Of a DNA stretch of 64,000 nt, positions 45,826 through 58,157 are shown piece after piece. The stretch lies in assembly GCF_054482525.1 (NCBI RefSeq), contig NZ_CM137006.1, one strand, 5' to 3'. The notes below the pieces were generated by a model, which saw only the letters and a list, made by a program, of their open reading frames with translations, had not been told where the DNA came from and did not search any database. A program made the translations under genes and the position numbers. Within the stretch, counting starts at the first letter, position 1. Each line of letters starts with the position of its first letter.

Positions 45826-46304
45826 TGCGAATTGGACACGGTTTTGACGTACACGCCTTTGGCGGTGAAGGCCCAATTATCATTGGTGGCGTACGCATTC
45901 CTTACGAAAAAGGATTGCTGGCGCATTCTGATGGCGACGTGGCGCTCCATGCGTTGACCGATGCATTGCTTGGCGCGGCGGCGCTGGGGGATATCGGCAA
46001 GCTGTTCCCGGATACCGATCCGGCATTTAAAGGTGCCGACAGCCGCGAGCTGCTACGCGAAGCCTGGCGTCGTATTCAGGCGAAGGGTTATACCCTGGGC
46101 AACGTCGATGTCACTATCATCGCTCAGGCACCGAAGATGTTGCCGCACATTCCACAAATGCGCGTGTTTATTGCCGAAGATCTCGGCTGCCATATGGATG
46201 ATGTTAACGTGAAAGCCACTACTACGGAAAAACTTGGATTTACCGGACGTGGGGAAGGGATTGCCTGTGAAGCGGTGGCGCTACTCATTAAGGCAACAAA
46301 ATGA
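45825..46304 (+). CDS. ispF: 2-C-methyl-D-erythritol 2,4-cyclodiphosphate synthase IspF
   Basis: 159-aa [47 protein letters not shown]... Confidence 0.95.
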
Positions 46305-47330
46305 TTGAGTTTGATAATCTCACTTACCTCCACGGTAAACCGCAAGGCACCGGGCTGCTGAAAGCCAATCCGGAAGACTTTGTGGTGGTGGAAGATTTGG
46401 GCTTTGAGCCTGATGGTGAAGGTGAGCATATTCTGGTTAGAATCCTCAAAAACGGCTGCAATACCCGTTTTGTGGCGGATGCACTGGCGAAATTCCTTAA
46501 AATTCATGCCCGTGAAGTCAGCTTCGCTGGGCAAAAAGACAAACATGCTGTAACGGAACAGTGGTTATGTGCTCGCGTGCCGGGCAAGGAAATGCCCGAT
46601 CTGAGCGCCTTTCAACTGGAAGGCTGCCAGGTGCTGGAGTATGCGCGGCACAAGCGCAAGCTGCGTTTAGGCGCGCTGAAAGGTAACGCCTTTACCCTGG
46701 TTCTGCGCGAAGTGAGCAATCGCGATGACGTTGAACAACGTCTGATCGATATTTGCGTAAAAGGTGTACCGAACTACTTCGGTGCCCAACGTTTTGGGAT
46801 TGGCGGTAGCAACTTGCAGGGCGCGCTGCGCTGGGCGCAAACCAATACTCCGGTGCGCGATCGCAATAAACGGAGTTTTTGGTTGTCGGCAGCCCGCAGT
46901 GCGTTGTTTAATCAGATTGTTGCTGAGCGCCTCAAAAAAGCAGACGTTAATCAAGTTGTTGACGGCGATGCGCTACAATTAGCCGGACGTGGTAGCTGGT
47001 TTGTTGCAACCACCGAAGAACTGGCGGAATTACAGCGTCGCGTCAACGATAAAGAGCTAATGATAACCGCCGCATTGCCGGGCAGTGGCGAATGGGGAAC
47101 TCAGCGTGAAGCGCTGGCATTCGAACAAGCAGCTGTCGCCGCAGAAACTGAATTACAAGCCTTACTGGTGCGCGAAAAAGTTGAAGCCGCGCGCAGAGCG
47201 ATGCTGCTGTATCCGCAACAATTAAGCTGGAACTGGTGGGATGACGTCACCGTAGAAATCCGTTTCTGGCTTCCGGCGGGTAGTTTTGCAACCAGCGTTG
47301 TCAGGGAACTTATCAACACAACAGGTGATT

Positions 47331-47350
<20 letters not shown>
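46301..47350 (+). CDS. truD: tRNA pseudouridine(13) synthase TruD
   Basis: 349-aa [51 protein letters not shown]... Confidence 0.92.
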
Positions 47351-48712
<1,362 letters not shown>

Positions 48713-48851
48713 AACGTGAGGAAATACCTGGATTTTTCCTGGTTATTTTGCCGCAGGTCAGCGTATCGTGAACATCTTTTCCAGTGTTCAGTATGGTGCC
48801 TTGCACGGTAATTATGTCACTGGTTATTAACCAATTTTTCCTGGGGGATAA

Positions 48852-49991
48852 ATGAGCGCGGGAAGCCCAAAATTCACCGTTCGCCGCATTGCGGCTTTGT
48901 CACTGGTTTCGCTATGGCTGGCAGGCTGTTCTGACACTTCAAATCCACCGGCACCGGTCAGCTCCGTTAATGGCAATGCGCCTGCAAATACCAATTCTGG
49001 TATGTTGATTACGCCGCCGCCGAAAATGGGGACGACGTCTACAGCGCAGCAACCGCAAATTCAGCCGGTACAGCAGCCACAAATTCAGGCTACTCAACAA
49101 CCGCAAATCCAGCCAGTACAGCCAGTAGCTCAGCAGCCGGTACAGATGGAAAACGGACGCATCGTCTACAACCGCCAGTATGGGAACATTCCGAAAGGCA
49201 GTTATAGCGGCAGTACCTATACCGTGAAAAAAGGCGACACACTTTTCTATATCGCCTGGATTACTGGCAACGATTTCCGTGACCTTGCTCAGCGCAACAA
49301 TATTCAGGCACCATACGCGCTGAACGTCGGTCAGACCTTACAGGTGGGTAATGCTTCCGGTACGCCAATCACTGGCGGAAATGCCATTACCCAGGCCGAT
49401 GCAGCAGAGCAAGGAGTTGTGATCAAGCCTGCACAAAATTCCACCGTTGCTGTTGCGTCGCAACCGACAATTACGTATTCTGAGTCTTCGGGTGAACAGA
49501 GTGCTAACAAAATGTTGCCGAACAACAAGCCAACTGCGACCACGGTCACAGCGCCTGTAACGGTACCAACAGCAAGCACAACCGAGCCGACTGTCAGCAG
49601 TACATCAACCAGTACGCCTATCTCCACCTGGCGCTGGCCGACTGAGGGCAAAGTGATCGAAACCTTTGGCGCTTCTGAGGGGGGCAACAAGGGGATTGAT
49701 ATCGCAGGCAGCAAAGGACAGGCAATTATCGCGACCGCAGATGGCCGCGTTGTTTATGCCGGTAACGCGCTGCGCGGCTACGGTAATCTGATTATCATCA
49801 AACATAATGATGATTACCTGAGTGCCTACGCCCATAACGACACAATGCTGGTCCGGGAACAACAAGAAGTGAAGGCGGGGCAAAAAATAGCAACCATGGG
49901 TAGCACCGGAACCAGTTCAACACGCTTGCATTTTGAAATTCGTTACAAGGGGAAATCCGTAAACCCGCTGCGTTATTTGCCGCAGCGATAA
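48852..49991 (+). CDS. nlpD: Lipoprotein NlpD (LysM plus M23 peptidase-like activator of amidase)
   Basis: 379-aa ORF with lipobox LAGC and a Q/P-rich tandem repeat ([25 protein letters not shown]). Confidence 0.93.
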
Positions 49992-50053
49992 ATCGGCGGA
50001 ACCAGGCTTTTGCTTGAATGTTCCGTCAAGGGATCACGGGTAGGAGCCACCTT

Positions 50054-51046
50054 ATGAGTCAGAATACGCTGAAAGTTCATGATTTAAATGAAGATGCGGA
50101 ATTTGATGAGAACGGAGTTGAGGTTTTTGACGAAAAGGCCTTAGTAGAAGAGGAACCCAGTGATAACGATTTGGCCGAAGAGGAACTGTTATCGCAGGGA
50201 GCCACACAGCGTGTGTTGGACGCGACTCAGCTTTACCTTGGTGAGATTGGTTATTCACCACTGTTAACGGCCGAAGAAGAAGTTTATTTTGCGCGTCGCG
50301 CACTGCGTGGAGATGTTGCCTCCCGCCGCCGGATGATCGAGAGTAACTTGCGTCTGGTGGTAAAAATTGCCCGCCGTTATGGCAATCGTGGTCTGGCGTT
50401 GCTGGACCTGATCGAAGAGGGCAACCTGGGGCTGATCCGCGCGGTAGAGAAGTTTGACCCGGAACGTGGTTTCCGCTTCTCAACATACGCAACCTGGTGG
50501 ATTCGCCAGACGATTGAACGGGCGATTATGAACCAAACCCGTACTATTCGTTTGCCTATTCACATCGTAAAGGAGCTGAACGTTTACCTGCGAACCGCAC
50601 GCGAGTTGTCCCATAAACTGGACCACGAACCAAGTGCGGAAGAGATCGCAGAGCAACTGGATAAGCCAGTTGATGACGTCAGCCGTATGCTTCGTCTTAA
50701 CGAGCGCATTACCTCGGTAGACACCCCGCTGGGTGGTGATTCCGAAAAAGCGTTGCTGGACATCCTGGCCGATGAAAAAGAGAACGGTCCGGAAGATACC
50801 ACGCAAGATGACGATATGAAGCAGAGCATCGTCAAATGGCTGTTCGAGCTGAACGCCAAACAGCGTGAAGTACTGGCACGTCGATTCGGTTTGCTGGGGT
50901 ACGAAGCGGCAACACTGGAAGATGTAGGTCGTGAAATTGGCCTCACCCGTGAACGTGTTCGCCAGATTCAGGTTGAAGGCCTGCGCCGTTTGCGCGAAAT
51001 CCTGCAAACGCAGGGGCTGAATATCGAAGCGCTGTTCCGCGAGTAA
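50054..51046 (+). CDS. rpoS: RNA polymerase sigma factor RpoS (sigma-38), full length
   Basis: ORF from [66 protein letters not shown]... (330 aa); no internal stop. Confidence 0.95.
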
Positions 51047-51061
51047 GTAAGCATCTGTCAG

Positions 51062-51098
51062 AAAGGCCAGTCTCAAGCGAGGCTGGCCTTTTTCTTTT
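51062..51098 (+). terminator. rpoS rho-independent terminator
   Basis: aaaggccagtctcaagcgaggctggcctttttctttt. Confidence 0.7.
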
Positions 51099-51165
51099 GG
51101 TTGGGGAGCCGGTGTGTTTGTGGGCTGGATAAGCCGCGATAGCGTCGCATCCGGCAATTTGCACC

Positions 51166-51573
51166 CTATGTGTTCATCATCTTGCGCACCAACTGCATAA
51201 ACAGCTCCTTCTCTTCTGCACTCAAACGCCCCAAAAATTCCTCATCCACACTGTCACCAATCGGTATCGCCGCAGCAAGTACCTTTTCTCCTTCGGCAGT
51301 CAGCCAGACAAAGCGACGCCGCTTGTCAGCGGTGTCATGTTCGCGTCTGACTAAGCCACGATTTTCCATTCTTGCCAACATTTCTGCCAGCGTTGCTTTG
51401 GTGCTGACGGCTGCTTCCATCAGTGCCACCTGTTCGATACCTGGTTTATCAGCAATGGCGCGCATCACCGCGTACTGTGGTTTGGTCAGGTCAGGTAACT
51501 CGTGCTGCCAGCGAGCCGTATGCTGCTGAAAAAGCTGTCGTAACTGATGGAACGCTTTATTTCGTAACGCCAT
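51166..51573 (-). CDS. MarR/SlyA-family transcriptional regulator, divergent from the decarboxylase operon
   Basis: 135-aa ORF MALRNKAFHQLRQLFQQHTARWQHELPDLTKPQYAVMRAIADKPGIEQVALMEAAVSTKATLAEMLARMENRGLVRREH... (winged-helix MarR signature). Confidence 0.8.
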   Translation of the reverse strand: MALRNKAFHQLRQLFQQHTARWQHELPDLTKPQYAVMRAIADKPGIEQVALMEAAVSTKATLAEMLARMENRGLVRREHDTADKRRRFVWLTAEGEKVLAAAIPIGDSVDEEFLGRLSAEEKELFMQLVRKMMNT

Positions 51574-51597
51574 GTAAACTCCGGGCTAATTCTCTGT

Positions 51598-51610
51598 CGC
51601 TATCATAGCG
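51598..51610. promoter_or_regulatory. Palindrome cgctatcatagcg just upstream of the MarR-family gene (operator candidate)
   Basis: 13-bp perfect palindrome 25 bp upstream of the regulator start codon. Confidence 0.35.
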
Positions 51611-51687
51611 GTTTTTCAGTGACGAAGAAGATGTTGTTACTTTTCAATCCTTGCCGCTGTGGAAATGAAGGACTATGTTAATAATAA

Positions 51688-51701
51688 CGTTCGTATACGA
51701 A
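51688..51701. promoter_or_regulatory. Palindrome gttcgtatacgaac just upstream of the UbiX-like gene (operator candidate)
   Basis: 14-bp perfect palindrome about 20 bp upstream of the start codon at 51720. Confidence 0.35.
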
Positions 51702-51719
51702 CAATTAAGAGAGTAAGCA

Positions 51720-52313
51720 ATGAAACTGATCGTCGGGATGACAGGGGCTACCGGTGCGCCTCTTGGTGTGGCATTACTGCAAGCGCTGCGGGAGATGCCG
51801 AATGTCGAGACTCATCTGGTGATGTCGAAGTGGGCGAAAACCACTATTGAACTGGAAACGCCTTACAGCGCTCGCGATGTTGCCGCCCTCGCAGACTTCA
51901 GCCATAACCCGGCGGATCAGGCGGCGACTATCTCTTCCGGCTCCTTTCGTACCGACGGCATGATCGTTATTCCATGCAGTATGAAAACGCTCGCCGGTAT
52001 CCGCGCTGGTTACGCCGATGGTCTCGTAGGGCGCGCGGCGGACGTCGTGCTCAAAGAAGGCCGCAAACTGGTGCTGGTGCCGCGTGAAATGCCGCTTAGC
52101 ACAATCCATCTCGAAAATATGCTCGCACTTTCGCGCATGGGCGTGGCGATGGTGCCGCCCATGCCTGCCTTTTATAACCATCCCGAAACGGTAGATGACA
52201 TTGTCCACCACGTGGTAGCCCGCGTGCTGGATCAATTTGGCCTCGAACATCCTCACGCCAGGCGCTGGCAAGGATTGCCGCAGGCCCGGAATTTTTCTCA
52301 GGAGAATGAATAA
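51720..52313 (+). CDS. UbiX/Pad1-family flavin prenyltransferase (B subunit of a non-oxidative hydroxyarylic acid decarboxylase; EcdB/BsdB-like)
   Basis: 197-aa ORF MKLIVGMTGATGAPLGVALLQAL... (UbiX N-terminal GMTGATG signature). Confidence 0.85.
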   Translation: MKLIVGMTGATGAPLGVALLQALREMPNVETHLVMSKWAKTTIELETPYSARDVAALADFSHNPADQAATISSGSFRTDGMIVIPCSMKTLAGIRAGYADGLVGRAADVVLKEGRKLVLVPREMPLSTIHLENMLALSRMGVAMVPPMPAFYNHPETVDDIVHHVVARVLDQFGLEHPHARRWQGLPQARNFSQENE

Positions 52314-53740
52314 TGGCATTTGATGATTTACGCAGCTTTTTACAGGCGCTTGATGACCACGGCCAGTTACTGAAAATCAGCGAAGAGGTGAACGCGGAAC
52401 CGGATCTGGCTGCCGCTGCCAACGCCACCGGGCGTATCGGCGATGGTGCACCGGCTCTGTGGTTTGACAATATTCGCGGCTTTACCGATGCCCGCGTGGC
52501 GATGAATACCATCGGTTCCTGGCAGAACCACGCGATTTCCCTCGGCCTGCCGCCAAACACCCCGGTTAAAAAACAGATTGATGAGTTTATCCGCCGCTGG
52601 GATAACTTCCCCATTGCCCCGGAGCGCCGCGCCAATCCAGCCTGGGCGCAGAACACCGTCGATGGCGACGAGATCAACCTGTTCGATATTCTGCCACTGT
52701 TTCGTTTAAACGACGGTGATGGCGGTTTCTATCTCGACAAAGCGTGCGTGGTTTCCCGCGATCCGCTTGATCCGGATAACTTCGGCAAGCAGAACGTCGG
52801 CATCTACCGTATGGAAGTGAAGGGTAAGCGTAAGCTCGGTCTGCAACCGGTGCCGATGCACGATATCGCCCTGCATCTGCATAAAGCGGAAGAGCGCGGT
52901 GAAGATCTGCCGATTGCAATCACGCTCGGTAACGATCCGATCATCACCCTGATGGGGGCCACGCCGCTGAAATACGATCAGTCTGAGTATGAAATGGCAG
53001 GCGCGCTGCGCGAAAGCCCGTATCCGATCGCCACCGCGCCATTGACCGGTTTTGATGTGCCGTGGGGCTCGGAGGTGATCCTCGAAGGAGTCATCGAAAG
53101 CCGCAAACGCGAGATTGAAGGGCCATTCGGTGAGTTTACCGGCCACTACTCAGGCGGGCGCAATATGACCGTCGTGCGCATTGATAAAGTCTCTTATCGC
53201 AGCAAACCCATTTTTGAATCGCTCTATCTCGGGATGCCGTGGACGGAAATCGACTACCTGATGGGTCCAGCCACCTGCGTGCCGCTGTATCAGCAACTGA
53301 AAGCCGAGTTCCCGGAAGTGCAGGCGGTGAACGCCATGTACACCCACGGCCTGCTGGCGATTATCTCCACCAAAAAACGCTACGGTGGCTTTGCCCGCGC
53401 GGTGGGCCTGCGTGCGATGACCACGCCACACGGTCTGGGCTACGTGAAGATGGTGATTATGGTCGATGAAGACGTTGATCCGTTCAACCTGCCGCAGGTG
53501 ATGTGGGCGCTCTCTTCGAAAGTGAACCCGGCAGGGGATTTGGTGCAGTTGCCGAATATGTCCGTGCTGGAACTCGACCCAGGCTCAAGCCCAGCAGGGA
53601 TCACCGACAAGCTGATTATCGACGCCACCACGCCTGTCGCCCCGGACAACCGTGGTCACTACAGCCAGCCCGTGGTGGATTTGCCGGAAACCAAAGCCTG
53701 GGCTGAAAAACTGACCGCTATGCTGGCCGCACGTAAATAA
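52313..53740 (+). CDS. UbiD-family decarboxylase (C subunit; EcdC/BsdC-like)
   Basis: 475-aa ORF MAFDDLRSFLQALDDHGQLLKISEEVNAEPDLAAAANATGR...; start overlaps the upstream stop. Confidence 0.85.
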   Translation: MAFDDLRSFLQALDDHGQLLKISEEVNAEPDLAAAANATGRIGDGAPALWFDNIRGFTDARVAMNTIGSWQNHAISLGLPPNTPVKKQIDEFIRRWDNFPIAPERRANPAWAQNTVDGDEINLFDILPLFRLNDGDGGFYLDKACVVSRDPLDPDNFGKQNVGIYRMEVKGKRKLGLQPVPMHDIALHLHKAEERGEDLPIAITLGNDPIITLMGATPLKYDQSEYEMAGALRESPYPIATAPLTGFDVPWGSEVILEGVIESRKREIEGPFGEFTGHYSGGRNMTVVRIDKVSYRSKPIFESLYLGMPWTEIDYLMGPATCVPLYQQLKAEFPEVQAVNAMYTHGLLAIISTKKRYGGFARAVGLRAMTTPHGLGYVKMVIMVDEDVDPFNLPQVMWALSSKVNPAGDLVQLPNMSVLELDPGSSPAGITDKLIIDATTPVAPDNRGHYSQPVVDLPETKAWAEKLTAMLAARK

Positions 53741-53750
53741 GGAGAACAAG

Positions 53751-53987
53751 ATGATTTGTCCACGTTGTGCCGATGAACAGATTGAAGTGATGGCGAAATC
53801 GCCGGTAAAAGATGTCTGGACGATCTATCAGTGCCAGCATTGCCTCTATACCTGGCGCGATACCGAACCGCTACGCCGCACCAGCCGCGAACATTATCCC
53901 GAAGCGTTCCGCATGACGCAGAAAGATATTGATGACGCGCCGATGGTGCCGAGCATCCCGCCGCTGCTGGCGGAAGGTAAGCGCTAA
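53751..53987 (+). CDS. Small subunit D of hydroxyarylic acid decarboxylase (EcdD/BsdD-like; Cys-rich zinc-ribbon-like)
   Basis: 78-aa ORF MICPRCADEQIEVMAKSPVKDVWTIYQCQHCLYTWRD... with CxxC...CxxC. Confidence 0.75.
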   Translation: MICPRCADEQIEVMAKSPVKDVWTIYQCQHCLYTWRDTEPLRRTSREHYPEAFRMTQKDIDDAPMVPSIPPLLAEGKR

Positions 53988-53989
53988 AT

Positions 53990-54020
53990 AAAAGGTCCGA
54001 TGCCCATCGGACCTTTTTAT
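53990..54020. terminator. Bidirectional terminator hairpin between the decarboxylase operon and ygbN
   Basis: aaaaggtccgatgcccatcggacctttttat. Confidence 0.6.
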
Positions 54021-54025
54021 TAAGG

Positions 54026-55390
54026 TCAAATTACCGCCCATACGCACCAGGTAATTAAGAATCCGGTAAAACCGAGAATGGTCGTTAACACTGTCCAGGT
54101 TTTCAGACCGTCTGCTACCGACAACCCCAGATATTTGGTCACAATCCAGAACCCTGAGTCATTAATATGTGACGCGCCAAGCCCACCAAAGCAGGCTGCC
54201 AGCGTCACCAATACGCACTGAATCGGATTCAATCCCATCACCGCTTCTGAGAGTAACCCGCCGGTTGTCAGGATTGCTACGGTTGCTGACCCCTGCGATG
54301 CACGCAGCGCCAGTGAAATAATAAATGCGGCTGGTAACAGAGGCAGGTCAATCATTTGTAGCATGTTGGCAAGGGCTTTGCCGACGCCCGATTCCACCAG
54401 CACTTTGCCAAATACCCCTCCAGCACCAGTAACCAAAATCACTACCGCCGCAGTGGGAAGGGCTGAGCCCATAATGTCGCTGGTGTGTTGTAAGCTCCAG
54501 CCGCGACGTAAAGCCAATAACCAGAATGCCAGCACCAGCGCAATCATTAGAGCTACCATTGGTGAGCCGATCAGCTGTAGCGTACCAAGCAGGGGATGCG
54601 AAGGCGGCATCAGTGTTGCGGAAACCGTACCCGCCATGATAATCGCGATAGGAATAACAATTAGCGAGGTGACCAGCGCGACGCCCGGTGGATTTATTTT
54701 ATCGCTTAATTTTGTCGCGCCTTCCTCACTGGCCGGAGCCAGTTGCATCTGTTCCAGTACTTCCACCGACATCGCATATTGGCGCTTATTGATTATTTTC
54801 GCTGCAAAGTAGCCAACAATCCCTGCTGGAATAGAAATCGCAATACCGATGATGGTTAGCCAGCCGATGTCTGCGTGGAGTAACCCCGCTGCGGCGACAG
54901 GGCCTGGATGCGGCGGTACCGCCACATGAACAGTTAGCATGATTCCAGCGACAGGCAGGCCAAATTTGAGTGGCGATATTTTGGCAACCTTGGCAAAACC
55001 GTAAATGATTGGCGCAAGAATAATAAAGCCGACATCAAAGAAGACGGGAATACCGAGGAAGAACGCTGCCAGAGTCAGCGCAGCGATAGTTCGTTTGTCA
55101 CCTAACTTGCGACTGAAATAATTAGCCAGTGACTCTGCACCACCAGAGTGTTCGATCATACGCCCCAGCATAGCGCCCAGACCAATAATAATAGTGACGG
55201 AACCAAGCACACCGCCCATCCCGGCGATCATCACTTTACCCACTTCGCCCGCTGGTATACCCGCCGCAAGTGCGACTAACAGGCTGACGAGGAGCAGAGC
55301 AACGAATGGTTGTACCTTTGCCTTGATGACCAGCAGCAACAGCATGATTACGCCAGTTAACGCAATGCATAACAATGTAATTGTGGACAT
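54026..55390 (-). CDS. ygbN: GntP-family permease YgbN
   Basis: 454-aa polytopic membrane ORF MSTITLLCIALTGVIMLLLLVIKAKVQPFVALLLVSLLVALAAG... Confidence 0.88.
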   Translation of the reverse strand: MSTITLLCIALTGVIMLLLLVIKAKVQPFVALLLVSLLVALAAGIPAGEVGKVMIAGMGGVLGSVTIIIGLGAMLGRMIEHSGGAESLANYFSRKLGDKRTIAALTLAAFFLGIPVFFDVGFIILAPIIYGFAKVAKISPLKFGLPVAGIMLTVHVAVPPHPGPVAAAGLLHADIGWLTIIGIAISIPAGIVGYFAAKIINKRQYAMSVEVLEQMQLAPASEEGATKLSDKINPPGVALVTSLIVIPIAIIMAGTVSATLMPPSHPLLGTLQLIGSPMVALMIALVLAFWLLALRRGWSLQHTSDIMGSALPTAAVVILVTGAGGVFGKVLVESGVGKALANMLQMIDLPLLPAAFIISLALRASQGSATVAILTTGGLLSEAVMGLNPIQCVLVTLAACFGGLGASHINDSGFWIVTKYLGLSVADGLKTWTVLTTILGFTGFLITWCVWAVI

Positions 55391-55478
55391 GGGAAACCCT
55401 GTCTGAAAGTTATAGTTAACCTACCCCATCCGTAGATGGGGGGATGTATGGGTACGTTGTAATTAGGGATTTAACGAA

Positions 55479-56255
55479 TTAGCGCCAGGCGTCAAACCAG
55501 CCAAGCCCTTCTTCGGTGAGGCCACGAGGTTTATATTCACAACCGATCCAGCCCTGATATCCCACCTCATCGAACAGGCGGAACAGCCACGGATAGTTGA
55601 TTTCTCCATCGTCCGGTTCATGTCGATCAGGTAGTCCGGCAATTTGTACGTGCGCATATTTCCCGGCGTAGTCGCGGATTAAATGCGTCAGGTTGCCATC
55701 TACTTTTTGCGCATGAAAAGTATCTAGTTGAATAAACACGTTATCTCGCGCAACTTCTTCAACAATAGCCAGTGCCTGATACTGGCTGGAGAAGAGATAA
55801 TGAGGCTTAACGCCGGGGCTGAGTGCTTCAACTAATATTCGCTTGCCGTGTGGTGCAAAGCGGTCGGCAGCGTAGCGGATATTATCGATAAATACTGCCC
55901 TGTACCGTTCAGCATCTTCGCCAGCGGGCACGACGCCTGCCATCACATGGACTTGTTCACAATTGAGCGCCAATGCATATTCCAGTGCCAGGTCGATGTC
56001 TGCGTGTGCTTCGTGCTCACGTCCGGGAAGGGCGGATAATCCCCATTCCCCCGCATTAATATCTCCGGGAGCGGTATTGAACAGCGCCAGTGTCAGATGG
56101 TTTTGCTCCAGTTGCTTTTGGATTTGCAGGGTGGAGTAGTTATAGGGAAACAGAAATTCCACAGCATCGAACCCGGCTTTTCGCGCTGCGGCGAAGCGTT
56201 CAATAAAAGGCACTTCGGTGAACATCATGGATAAATTAGCTGCAAAACGAGGCAT
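55479..56255 (-). CDS. ygbM: Sugar-phosphate isomerase-like protein YgbM (2-oxo-tetronate isomerase OtnI; hydroxypyruvate isomerase family)
   Basis: 258-aa [41 protein letters not shown]... Confidence 0.85.
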
Positions 56256-56259
56256 TGCA

Positions 56260-56898
56260 TTAACTCCTTAATTCCGCAATTTCACCTGCGGTCAGATAAC
56301 GGATCGGGCGGTCACCGAGAATAAAAATCAGCTTTGCCGTTTCCTCCAGCTCTTCCATATTGTTGGCGGCTTCTTGCAGGCTTTCACCGCAAACCACTGG
56401 GCCATGATTTGCCAGTAAAAAAGCCTGATTGTCTGCTGCCAGTTCCGCCAGATCCTGTGCGATGCGTTTATCGCCCGGTCGGTAATAAGGCACCAGCGGG
56501 ATATTTCCCATCCGCATCACCACGTATGGTGTGAACGGACGAATAACGTTGCTGCTGTCCAGCCCTTGCAGGCAGGAAAGCGCCGTCGACCATGTGCTGT
56601 GCAAATGCACCACCGCTTTACAGCGCGGATTGTTGCGATACAGCGCCAGATGAAAGAGCACCTCTTTCGAGGGTTTGTCACCACTTAACCATTCGCCATC
56701 CGCGGCGACTTTGGAAAGCCGCTGCGGATCGAGATTGCCCAGGCATGAACCTGTCGGTGTCGCCAGTAAATTCCCGTCAGGTAAAAGCAGCGACAGATTG
56801 CCAGCCGAACCGGTTGCATAGCCGCGCTGAAAGAATGAACTGGCAATCCGCGTCATCTCCTCTCGCAAAGACTGCTCTACTTTTGCGAAATCGCTCAT
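56260..56898 (-). CDS. ygbL: Class II aldolase/adducin-family decarboxylase YgbL (OtnC)
   Basis: 212-aa [42 protein letters not shown]... Confidence 0.85.
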
Positions 56899-58157
56899 GA
56901 TAAAAACTCTCTTTGGGCTCGTGAAAAAAAGGCTTCATCACCGAAGTTGCCAGATTTAAGGGCGAGTGAGACAGGCTTATCCAGTGCGTTTACCCACGGC
57001 ACGCCGGGGGAAATGGTTGGGCCAATATGAAACCCTTTTATTCCCAGGCTCTGTGTGACTACGCCGGAGGTCTCACCGCCTGCGACAATAAAGCGTGTCA
57101 CGCCTTCCGCGGCTAACCGCGTCGCTAGTTGAGAAAACAGTGTTTCTACTGCCTGACTGGCTTTTTGTGCACCGTATTGCTGTTGAATTGCTGCCAATGC
57201 GTCAGTGCTGGCGGTGGCAAAAACCAGTGGAGCAAGTACACTTTCCTGGCCCAGAACCCACTCTGCCAGTTCGTGTGCATAAGCGGCCAGAGTTTCAATT
57301 GAGAGGCAGCGTGCCACATCAACTTCACGGGCTGGTGCAATTTGACGGTAATGTGCTACCTGGCGGTTGGTCATTTGAGAGCATGAACCGGAGAGCACTA
57401 CGCCGCGCCCAGCGAGCGGATGCCCTGCTTTGCGAGCCTGGTTACCGTTTTCTTGCGCCCACTGCCGGGCAAGGCCAATCGCCAGACCAGAACCGCCCGT
57501 TACCAGTGGGGCATCGCGCAAGGCTTCTCCCTGAATTTCCAGATGGTGTTCGGTCAGCGCATCAAGCACCGCGTAGCGGTAGCCCTCTTGCTGTAAGCGA
57601 GCCAGCTCTTGACGAACGGCATCCACACCTTGTTCGAAAACATGTGCCGAAACGACGCCGCAGCGCCCTGTGGATTGCGCTTCAACCAGACGGGGAAGAT
57701 AGCTGTCGGTCATGGGATTTACCGGGTGATGGCGCATCCCAGATTCGGCCAGCAGTTGATTCATTACGAACAAATACCCCTGATAAACCGTACGTCCGTT
57801 GACCGGCAGGGCCGGAGAGAAGACCGTAAACGGCGTGTCGAGAGCATCCATTAATGCATCGGTAACCGGGCCGATATTACCTTTCGCCGTACTGTCGAAA
57901 GTAGAGCAGTATTTGAAATAGATCTGTTTGCAACCTTGCTGTTGCAACCAGCTCAGAGCCGCCAGCGATTGCTGTGTGGCTTCAACCACCGGACAGGAAC
58001 GCGTTTTCAGGCTGATCACCAGTGCGTCGATTGCTTCCGGCATTTTACCTGTTGGAACACCGTTAATTTGTACCGTTGGTAGACCGTTTTCCACCAGAAA
58101 ACTGGCGATATCCGTCGCGCCGGTAAAATCATCGGCGATAACGCCAATCTTGATCAT
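56895..58157 (-). CDS. ygbK: Four-carbon acid sugar kinase YgbK (OtnK)
   Basis: 420-aa ORF MIKIGVIADDFTGATDIASFLVENGLPTVQINGVPTG... Confidence 0.85.
   Translation of the reverse strand: MIKIGVIADDFTGATDIASFLVENGLPTVQINGVPTGKMPEAIDALVISLKTRSCPVVEATQQSLAALSWLQQQGCKQIYFKYCSTFDSTAKGNIGPVTDALMDALDTPFTVFSPALPVNGRTVYQGYLFVMNQLLAESGMRHHPVNPMTDSYLPRLVEAQSTGRCGVVSAHVFEQGVDAVRQELARLQQEGYRYAVLDALTEHHLEIQGEALRDAPLVTGGSGLAIGLARQWAQENGNQARKAGHPLAGRGVVLSGSCSQMTNRQVAHYRQIAPAREVDVARCLSIETLAAYAHELAEWVLGQESVLAPLVFATASTDALAAIQQQYGAQKASQAVETLFSQLATRLAAEGVTRFIVAGGETSGVVTQSLGIKGFHIGPTISPGVPWVNALDKPVSLALKSGNFGDEAFFSRAQREFLS

Follow-up and report, generated by a model that had tools for sequence, protein, structure and literature searches.

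A predicted HosA-controlled hydroxyarylic acid decarboxylase operon beside rpoS in Escherichia coli and its likely loss from K-12-type lineages

The region between rpoS and mutS was described as a known polymorphic hot spot in a first-pass annotation of the DNA analysed here, and the literature documents it as such (PMC4209514). In the 64-kb stretch that we analysed (the window), a regulator gene and three enzyme genes lie between rpoS and ygbN, and their presence or absence has been documented as "pattern IV" of the o454-nlpD region. This raises the questions of what the segment encodes, how it is controlled, and whether it was gained by the strains that carry it or lost by those that do not. 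The unit covers about 51095-53986 (2.89 kb) and is bounded by the terminators of rpoS and ygbN; the genes and terminators are as follows:

50054-51046: rpoS, left neighbour of the unit
51060..51093, + strand: intrinsic terminator of rpoS (terminator scan; fold -24.5 kcal/mol, z -3.5)
51166..51573, - strand: hosA, 135 aa, MarR-family
51720..52313, + strand: subunit B (VdcB/EcdB/Pad1), 197 aa
52313..53740, + strand: subunit C (VdcC/EcdC), 475 aa
53751..53987, + strand: subunit D (VdcD/EcdD), 78 aa
53990..54021, both strands: bidirectional terminator (hairpin -17.6 kcal/mol on +, -17.1 on -; z -5.0 and -4.6; U-runs on both strands)
54026-55390, - strand: ygbN, right neighbour of the unit

All four open reading frames of the first-pass annotation are present where it placed them, and its segment coordinates were right to within a few bases of the K-12 junctions (about 51095 and 53987). 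The left edge of the polymorphic segment is the rpoS terminator, where homology with K-12 stops at about 51095 when the junction is read directly. The right edge is the terminator at 53990..54021, which serves both the BCD operon and ygbN, its convergent neighbour; homology with K-12 restarts at 53987. B, C and D are adjacent and co-oriented on the + strand in the order B-C-D, the start codon of C overlapping the stop codon of B by 1 nt and a gap of 10 nt separating C from D. An Rfam gathering scan of 46000-58000 gave no match, which indicates that no known sRNA or riboswitch in this interval is involved.

Comparison with K-12 MG1655 bore out the earlier suggestion that K-12 lacks the segment: the match to 51100-54025 was limited to the final 39 bases, and 6 bp separate the rpoS and ygbN terminators in MG1655. 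Among 5426 complete E. coli genomes, 2380 (~44%) carried the unit and 1942 (~36%) had the K-12-type junction. The DNA allele of the window (PCN033) is rare, being found in 3 of the 5426 genomes, and the next closest allele is 96.6% identical. Locus, gene order and operator are the same as in E. coli O157:H7 (EcdBCD, or Pad1-YclC-YclD) and around hosA of EPEC E2348/69 and UPEC UMN026, but the O157:H7 and EPEC loci are only 95-96.6% identical to the window in DNA, with nearly all differences synonymous. On the right flank the window has ygbN, as in EPEC ('pattern IV'), whereas O157 has pphB-mutS instead.

The product of hosA scored 48 bits against the MarR Pfam model PF01047 (cut-off 24.6) and is identical at 132/135 positions to PDB 8AGA, the 'Transcriptional regulator HosA' of EPEC, and at 129/135 to the O157 protein. 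None of the three substitutions relative to 8AGA (M52I, T81A and K122Q) is at a ligand residue, and the published contact residues for 4-hydroxybenzoate (4-HBA), F8, H9, R12, F15, H18, K31 and D110, are all present. These features identify the regulator as HosA, a MarR-family repressor predicted to sense 4-hydroxybenzoate. Its role, which had been called not evident, is in fact published: as relayed by a citing paper, Roy & Ranjan 2016 (doi 10.1021/acs.biochem.5b01163) report HosA to be a repressor of its own gene and of the HAD operon that is released by 4-hydroxybenzoate and has its site downstream of the transcription start. For UMN026 HosA, relief of DNA binding by 4-HBA has been followed by EMSA, BLI and ITC, with a KD of 4.7 uM for 4-HBA.

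Three elements were located in the intergenic region between hosA and B:

51598..51610, no strand assigned: 13-bp palindrome CGCTATCATAGCG, with the core CTATCATAG
51651..51679, + strand: predicted sigma-70 promoter of BCD, with -35 TTGCCG (51651-56), a 17-nt spacer and -10 TATGTT (51674-79)
51689..51702, no strand assigned: candidate HosA operator GTTCGTATACGAAC, a 14-bp palindrome 17 nt upstream of the B start codon

The 14-mer GTTCGTATACGAAC is contained in one published HosA oligonucleotide (d-PAGE T_H), and the other published binding-site oligonucleotides appear in print as a 15-mer that has an additional T. Its arms GTTCG/CGAAC are found with at most 1 mismatch in 82/82 intergenic regions from about 80 species, where 0.06 sites would be expected by chance. 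This match identifies 51689..51702 as the presumptive counterpart of the published HosA operator. It is a single copy, and a search of the 64-kb window allowing up to 1 mismatch found no second HosA operator. In contrast, the intergenic region of Klebsiella and Enterobacter is about 25 bp longer and contains, at -73 to -77, an additional distal operator-like site (GATCG-N4-CGAAC), which is degenerate in this window; several members of that group also have an extra ~2.6 kb between hosA and rpoS. The operator of the window lies 115 bp from the hosA start codon, and the sequence does not account for autorepression in Escherichia by one such operator.

The first-pass annotation had pointed to two intergenic palindromes as possible sites for the regulator. 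Both are present, and the one at 51689-51702 alone is a conserved operator. By footprinting over 70-80 species, conservation of the palindrome at 51598-51610 is limited to its core CTAT(C/G)ATAGC, which in most loci keeps a fixed distance of 24-26 nt to the hosA start codon; beyond Escherichia and Citrobacter the outer arms are variable. It is probably the -10 box of hosA (TATGAT on the hosA strand, the complement of 51601-51606) and not an operator. A terminator-like call at 51596-51612 was dropped, as it consists of this palindrome and a T-run after it, within a promoter region, and its arms lack conservation. A simple sigma-70 consensus scan of 50900-54200 called no promoter, so the proposed BCD promoter rests instead on conservation across genera, in which CTTGC and GTA..TT blocks are kept. 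Its position agrees with the published location of the operator downstream of the transcription start. We infer both the exact BCD promoter and the hosA -10 box from sequence.

HosA might instead act chiefly as a global regulator of motility, fliC and virulence, the role first described for it in EPEC, with the control of BCD incidental; EPEC hosA mutants are reported to make less flagellin. However, in 78 of the 80 recovered species loci hosA lies divergently next to BCD or CD (of the remaining two, one contig is cut inside B and one locus has no match to B, C or D), an invariant operator without a further copy in the window lies at the BCD promoter, and the effector is the substrate of the enzyme itself. 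Although the two roles are mutually compatible, we regard a chiefly global HosA as unlikely and favour the control of BCD as its main function.

How did the unit come to be present in some E. coli strains and absent from others? The order nlpD-rpoS-hosA-BCD is kept across genera, and the unit adjoins rpoS in most genera of the Enterobacteriaceae: hosA-BCD is found beside rpoS in Escherichia, Citrobacter, Klebsiella, Enterobacter, Kluyvera, Kosakonia, Atlantibacter and others. Identity at third codon positions is 57-67% for C, 60-78% for rpoS and 55-64% for nlpD. The C protein is 96-99% identical across genera; recent transfer between genera was considered as a cause of this identity and dropped on the third-codon-position divergence. 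Because the unit keeps its place beside rpoS throughout the Enterobacteriaceae and has diverged in step with its neighbours, it appears that K-12 lost the unit and not that the other strains gained it. The unit would thus be an ancestral segment removed by a 2.89-kb deletion in K-12-like lineages, and the label 'island' in the first-pass annotation is misleading.

The opposite history, in which a horizontally acquired, pathogen-associated islet was inserted beside rpoS, goes back to the original reading of the O157:H7 '2.9-kb insert', and a 2024 preprint also claims transfer, deriving hosA from Shigella. It fits the absence from K-12, the location in a known recombination hot spot, the mosaic and raised divergence within the unit among E. 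coli strains, and the GC content (55.3% in the unit vs 51-52% in the flanks), a feature often taken as a sign of acquisition. This rise in GC is modest, and only B, C and D show it. Shigella falls phylogenetically within E. coli, so that the identity of 97.6% is mere within-species similarity. Besides the shared position next to rpoS in many genera and a synonymous divergence that follows rpoS and nlpD, there is no integrase, no tRNA among the open reading frames and no flanking direct repeat at the junctions. The unit is also carried by non-pathogens such as E. coli W, and no genuine plasmid copy was found in E. coli, the three 'plasmid' hits being records of 4.8-4.9 Mb, i.e. chromosomes. The comparative data thus speak against the repeated claim of a pathogen-specific, horizontally acquired islet, which we consider improbable, and favour ancestral presence followed by deletion.

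Published names for the operon are EcdBCD, KpdBCD, VdcBCD, BsdBCD and pad1-yclC-yclD. The UbiX-like, UbiD-like, small Cys-rich and MarR families proposed at first reading all exceeded curated cut-offs in HMM searches, and the gene order together with the VdcB, VdcC and VdcD scores confirmed the BsdBCD/EcdBCD-type architecture of a hydroxyarylic acid decarboxylase. B scored 312 bits against NCBIfam VdcB NF041206 (cut-off 290) and 246 bits against TIGR00421 (cut-off 109), matched PDB 1SBZ, the flavin prenyltransferase of O157:H7, at E=1.6e-129, and is identical to the O157:H7 UbiX/Pad1 at 196/197 positions, with H164 kept. The O157 enzyme is biochemically active, making prFMNH2 from DMAP or DMAPP. 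On this evidence we assign B as a UbiX-type flavin prenyltransferase expected to make prFMN.

C scored 790 bits against NCBIfam VdcC NF041204 (cut-off 650) and matched PDB 7AE4 at E=8e-160. The catalytic and substrate-positioning residues R166, E269, E274, H345 and Y377 are kept; E269 and E274 (EGPFGEF) align with E273 and E278 of ShVdcC, and the E(D)-R-E motif is present. These matches place C as a predicted UbiD-family, prFMN-dependent 4-hydroxybenzoate decarboxylase. D scored 120.5 bits against NCBIfam VdcD NF041205 (cut-off 30) and matched ShdD in 7AE4 at 4e-11. Its Cys3, 6, 28 and 31 form two CXXC knuckles, and the zinc ligands of ShVdcD carry the same numbering (C3, C6, C28 and C31; PMC8379154). 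D can be assigned as the putative zinc-ribbon activator subunit of C.

Among known systems, the 4-hydroxybenzoate decarboxylases of Klebsiella (KpdBCD) and Enterobacter cloacae P240, which turn 4-HBA into phenol, are orthologous and syntenic with rpoS, with 96-97% amino-acid identity in C. The VdcCD/BsdBCD enzymes of Sedimentibacter hydroxybenzoicus and Bacillus subtilis (PDB 7AE4) have the three-subunit system, the E(D)RE motif and the D zinc ribbon in common with the window, but they are distant by the E-values given above for C and D, their regulators differ, and D has 78 aa in the window vs 68 aa in theirs, a difference of 10 residues. For the O157:H7 'EcdCD' enzyme, 4-hydroxybenzoate is listed as the best substrate, so the substrate, first described as not evident, had already been published. 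C and D of the window are identical to the O157:H7 proteins at 473/475 and 77/78 positions, and we predict decarboxylation of 4-hydroxybenzoate and vanillate by its BCD. Vanillate is what we take to be the second listed substrate of the O157:H7 enzyme. That B and C are instead a spare UbiX/UbiD pair of the ubiquinone pathway, acting on 3-octaprenyl-4-hydroxybenzoate and not on free phenolic acids, is scarcely credible. B and C are indeed members of these two superfamilies, share their prFMN chemistry and folds, and in the case of C match E. coli UbiD structures at E about 1e-47. But C scored 174 bits against the UbiD equivalog model NF008175, far under the cut-off of 788 and in contrast to its VdcC score, the system needs and has a VdcD partner, which the ubiquinone enzyme does not use, and the regulator senses the free 4-HBA that is the best reported substrate of the O157 enzyme.

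Taken together, we hold with high confidence that the unit is a HosA-controlled operon for non-oxidative hydroxyarylic acid decarboxylation, including the following mechanism and the ancestral history with K-12-type loss. In the absence of inducer, a HosA dimer would occupy GTTCGTATACGAAC, and since this operator lies just downstream of the predicted BCD -10 box, HosA there would block transcription. Binding of 4-hydroxybenzoate at the HosA dimer interface (D110, R12 and H9) would cause HosA to leave the DNA, and B, C and D would then be produced from one translationally linked message. B would prenylate reduced FMN to give the prFMN cofactor, with which C, as a hexameric UbiD-family enzyme, would decarboxylate both 4-hydroxybenzoate, yielding phenol, and vanillate, and D, a zinc-ribbon protein bound to C, would keep the catalytic E-R-E loops in position. 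For near-identical proteins, others have shown that HosA binds the operator and is released from it by 4-HBA, that B is an active prenyltransferase, and which substrates the O157 enzyme accepts; for homologues, they have shown how C and D are built and that D is required.

The operon, its prFMN enzymology, the regulator, its effector and operator, and the mutS-rpoS presence/absence polymorphism are all already known. Added here are the counts in E. coli genomes, the proposed history of ancestral presence and loss, and the reading of the second palindrome as a probable -10 box of hosA. We predict that the strain converts 4-hydroxybenzoate to phenol in the gut, and phenyl sulfate, a uraemic toxin, derives from phenol. 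HosA is already employed in 4-hydroxybenzoate biosensors, and the map of operator and promoter over about 80 species is a resource for their design.

A broader reading, which we put forward tentatively and think rather less likely to hold than to fail, is that hosA-BCD has been associated with rpoS in the Enterobacteriaceae since ancient times, inherited vertically and held under unusually strong purifying selection. In E. coli, deeply diverged, recombining alleles together with a common deletion allele would then suggest balancing or niche-dependent selection on the detoxification of phenolic acids, and CTAT(C/G)ATAGC could be the site of a second regulator and not a -10 box.

Two smaller observations concern the locus. 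An IS91 element was confined to a derivative strain. Inside the segment missing from K-12, an element at 51120..51156 (- strand), flanked by the terminator of rpoS and the stop codon of hosA, can be assigned by the REP consensus as a putative REP (repetitive extragenic palindrome) element; its core GCCGGATGCGRCGY occurs in 3 copies in the window, against 0.23 expected.

Between the rpoS and ygbN terminators we found four open reading frames, placed as the first-pass annotation had them, and the annotation of the public record matches this layout.

Features of the rpoS-ygbN region
50054-51046: rpoS, intact, 330 aa, starting MSQNTL; terminator at 51060-51093
51120-51156, minus strand: what we take to be a REP element, flanked by the rpoS terminator and the hosA stop codon, within the stretch that K-12 has lost
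51166-51573, minus strand: hosA, MarR-type regulator, 135 aa (ORF)
51720-52313, plus strand: B, 197 aa (ORF)
52313-53740, plus strand: C, 475 aa (ORF), its start codon sharing one base with the B stop codon
53751-53987, plus strand: D, 78 aa (ORF), preceded by a GGAG ribosome-binding site
53990-54021: hairpin with a good fold on both strands, a terminator common to D and ygbN
54026-55390, minus strand: ygbN, convergent on BCD

Sequence comparison showed that the window is identical to the E. coli PCN033 chromosome over the interval 51100-54025. The REP core motif occurs in three copies in the window against 0.23 expected, and no Rfam family was present in the region.

B, C and D were searched against NCBIfam profiles with curated cut-offs, and Pfam was used for domains. 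All three scored above the cut-offs, as VdcB (312 bits, cut-off 290), VdcC (790 bits, cut-off 650) and VdcD (120.5 bits, cut-off 30), which bears out the earlier reading of a UbiX/UbiD/small-subunit decarboxylase. As the ubiquinone enzyme UbiD, C fell below the equivalog model (174 vs 788) and was rejected. Pfam found a Flavoprotein domain in B and three UbiD domains in C. In the PDB, B matches 1SBZ (Pad1/UbiX-like, E. coli O157:H7; E=1.6e-129), and C and D match the VdcC/ShdC (E=8e-160) and ShdD chains of 7AE4, respectively. Alignment to E273, E278, H349 and Y381 of ShVdcC assigned the residues of C, which retains the UbiD E-R-E catalytic residues R166, E269 and E274 (in EGPFGEF) as well as H345 and Y377, the His/Tyr proposed to position the substrate. 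B retains H164, which has been discussed in connection with how the O157 enzyme tolerates DMAP/DMAPP. In D, Cys 3, 6, 28 and 31 are numbered identically to the four zinc ligands of ShVdcD. VdcC requires VdcD for activity; VdcD is a zinc-ribbon protein that activates it allosterically.

The regulator carries a MarR domain (Pfam) and shares 132 of 135 residues with "Transcriptional regulator HosA" (PDB 8AGA; six more entries match). The residues reported to hold 4-hydroxybenzoate in HosA (H9, R12 and D110) are present, as are the nearby F8, F15, H18 and K31, and none of the three positions that differ from the EPEC protein is a ligand residue. According to a published summary of Roy and Ranjan (2016), HosA from the uropathogenic E. 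coli strain UMN026 represses its own gene and the decarboxylase operon; its palindromic binding site lies downstream of the transcription start, and 4-hydroxybenzoate releases it from the DNA. HosA has also been studied independently by EMSA, biolayer interferometry and calorimetry, with a KD of 4.7 uM for 4-HBA (PMC6261655); GTTCGTATACGAAC, contained in oligonucleotides of that paper, is the window palindrome 51689-51702. A review table citing Lupa et al. 2005 gives 4-hydroxybenzoate as the best substrate of E. coli O157:H7 EcdCD, with one more substrate. The O157:H7 B protein (WP_000767724, annotated as subunit B of the O157 locus) uses DMAP or DMAPP to form prFMNH2. The orthologous Klebsiella system, KpdBCD, forms phenol from 4-hydroxybenzoate. 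The second EcdCD substrate in the review table is presumably vanillate. Because B, C and D are nearly identical to the O157:H7 proteins (196/197, 473/475 and 77/78 residues), the substrate and the role of the regulator, which the first-pass annotation had left open, are already known from published work. The observation is real and its interpretation correct; others have already described each functional element of hosA-BCD and tested it on near-identical sequences. What the present analysis adds is modest: ancestral inheritance with loss as the likely history, a predicted promoter/operator map, and a proposed reassignment of the second palindrome.

The hosA-B intergenic regions were footprinted across about 80 species (82 regions). 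The operator arms GTTCG/CGAAC occur with at most one mismatch in all 82, against a chance expectation of 0.06 sites per shuffled region. In most of the loci with an adjacent B, the site lies 15-21 nt ahead of the start codon of B. Conserved blocks directly upstream of the operator fit a sigma-70 promoter, with a predicted -35 box TTGCCG (51651-56) and -10 box TATGTT (51674-79) separated by 17 nt. The operator would then span roughly +1 to +20, where bound HosA could act as a roadblock; a site downstream of the transcription start is also what has been published. In the other palindrome (51598-51610), conservation is limited to the core CTAT(C/G)ATAGC, which in most loci is 24-26 nt away from the hosA start codon and gives TATnAT on both strands; we infer that this core may be the hosA -10 box. 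A second operator-like site, GATCG-N4-CGAAC, sits just upstream of the -35 box, 73-77 nt ahead of the start codon of B, in 35 of the 82 regions (comparison loci L009, L014, L017, L021, L023-L027, L031, L035, L036, L039-L050, L052-L057 and L062-L065). Its carriers are Klebsiella, Enterobacter, Kluyvera, Lelliottia, Leclercia and Pseudocitrobacter; within the 82-region set, none was found in Escherichia, Citrobacter or Salmonella, where the intergenic region is shorter (by about 25 bp in Escherichia).

Direct comparison confirmed that the unit is absent from K-12 MG1655, in which no more than the final 39 bases of 51100-54025 find a match: homology stops at about 51095, just past the rpoS terminator, and restarts at 53987, the final base of the D stop codon, so that the missing segment is about 2.89 kb. 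This segment is the "2.9-kb" difference of LeClerc and colleagues, and "pattern IV" in PMC4209514 (slyA/kpdR-kpdBCD with o454=ygbN present, EPEC-like). At the K-12 junction (2994-2999 of locus L001), a 6-bp filler, GTGCAC, that matches neither end of the unit joins the rpoS and ygbN terminators, and comparison of this junction with the window showed the deletion boundaries to be free of direct repeats. In the set of 5426 complete E. coli genomes, 2380 carry the unit (at least 80% of its length), 1942 have the K-12-type junction and 5416 have rpoS. O157:H7 has the unit, with pphB-mutS as the right flank where the window has ygbN. In strain 2009C_3612, an IS91-family transposase and a hypothetical gene (L003 1826-4256) replace the hosA 5' end, the whole of B and most of C, an independent route to operon loss. 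No genuine E. coli plasmid with the unit was found. Both the K-12 MG1655 record compared here (L001 1954-2946; internal stop) and E2348/69 (L084 1454-2447; frameshift) list rpoS as a pseudogene.

The DNA allele of the unit in the window is rare, being identical in 3 of the 5426 genomes, with the next closest at 96.6%. Compared with other E. coli copies (L084, L085 and L086), identity in the unit is patchy (90-99% per 250-bp bin), and the nlpD-rpoS and ygbN flanks are 98-100% identical. Since the unit proteins differ from these copies by 1-6 residues, the allele diversity is almost wholly synonymous and mosaic; the patchy divergence fits a region known as a recombination hot spot.

A HosA scan of one genome per species recovered 80 loci. 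The nlpD-rpoS-hosA-BCD order of the window recurs in Escherichia species, Citrobacter, Klebsiella, Enterobacter, Kluyvera, Kosakonia, Lelliottia, Atlantibacter and others. Relative to nlpD-rpoS, hosA-BCD is inverted in Salmonella enterica subsp. arizonae and diarizonae and in Phytobacter/Kosakonia sp. S29, with D rather than hosA facing rpoS (L016, L019, L032, L038, L058 and L068), and the unit lies away from rpoS in Rahnella, Erwinia and Leminorella. In the Klebsiella oxytoca-group and in many Enterobacter, Lelliottia and Leclercia genomes, an additional stretch of about 2.6 kb lies between hosA and rpoS (L014, L021, L024, L041-L045, L047-L049, L055, L062 and L065). Eight species loci, from Pluralibacter, Superficieibacter, Cedecea, some Rahnella, Erwinia and Mangrovibacter, have hosA beside C-D without B (L052, L060, L066, L067, L076, L079, L081 and L083); these enzymes presumably rely on the housekeeping UbiX for prFMN. 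Across genera, third codon positions agree with the window at 57-67% for C, comparable to the 60-78% of rpoS and 55-64% of nlpD, and in this comparison the C proteins are 96-98% identical. Over the wider set of enterobacterial loci L009-L073, amino-acid identity of C is 93-100%, almost the conservation of RpoS, with 64-81% for HosA and 79-93% for B. Because the third-codon divergence of C is like that of its neighbours, its conservation reflects very strong purifying selection and not recent transfer; the unit has thus diverged jointly with its neighbours under strong purifying selection. A preprint proposed that hosA was acquired from Shigella, a view contradicted by the divergence of the unit in step with rpoS and nlpD. 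Thus, we favour reading the unit as an ancestral segment that K-12-like lineages have lost by deletion. The one feature of it that resembles an island is its GC content, moderately above that of the flanks (55.3% vs 51-52%).
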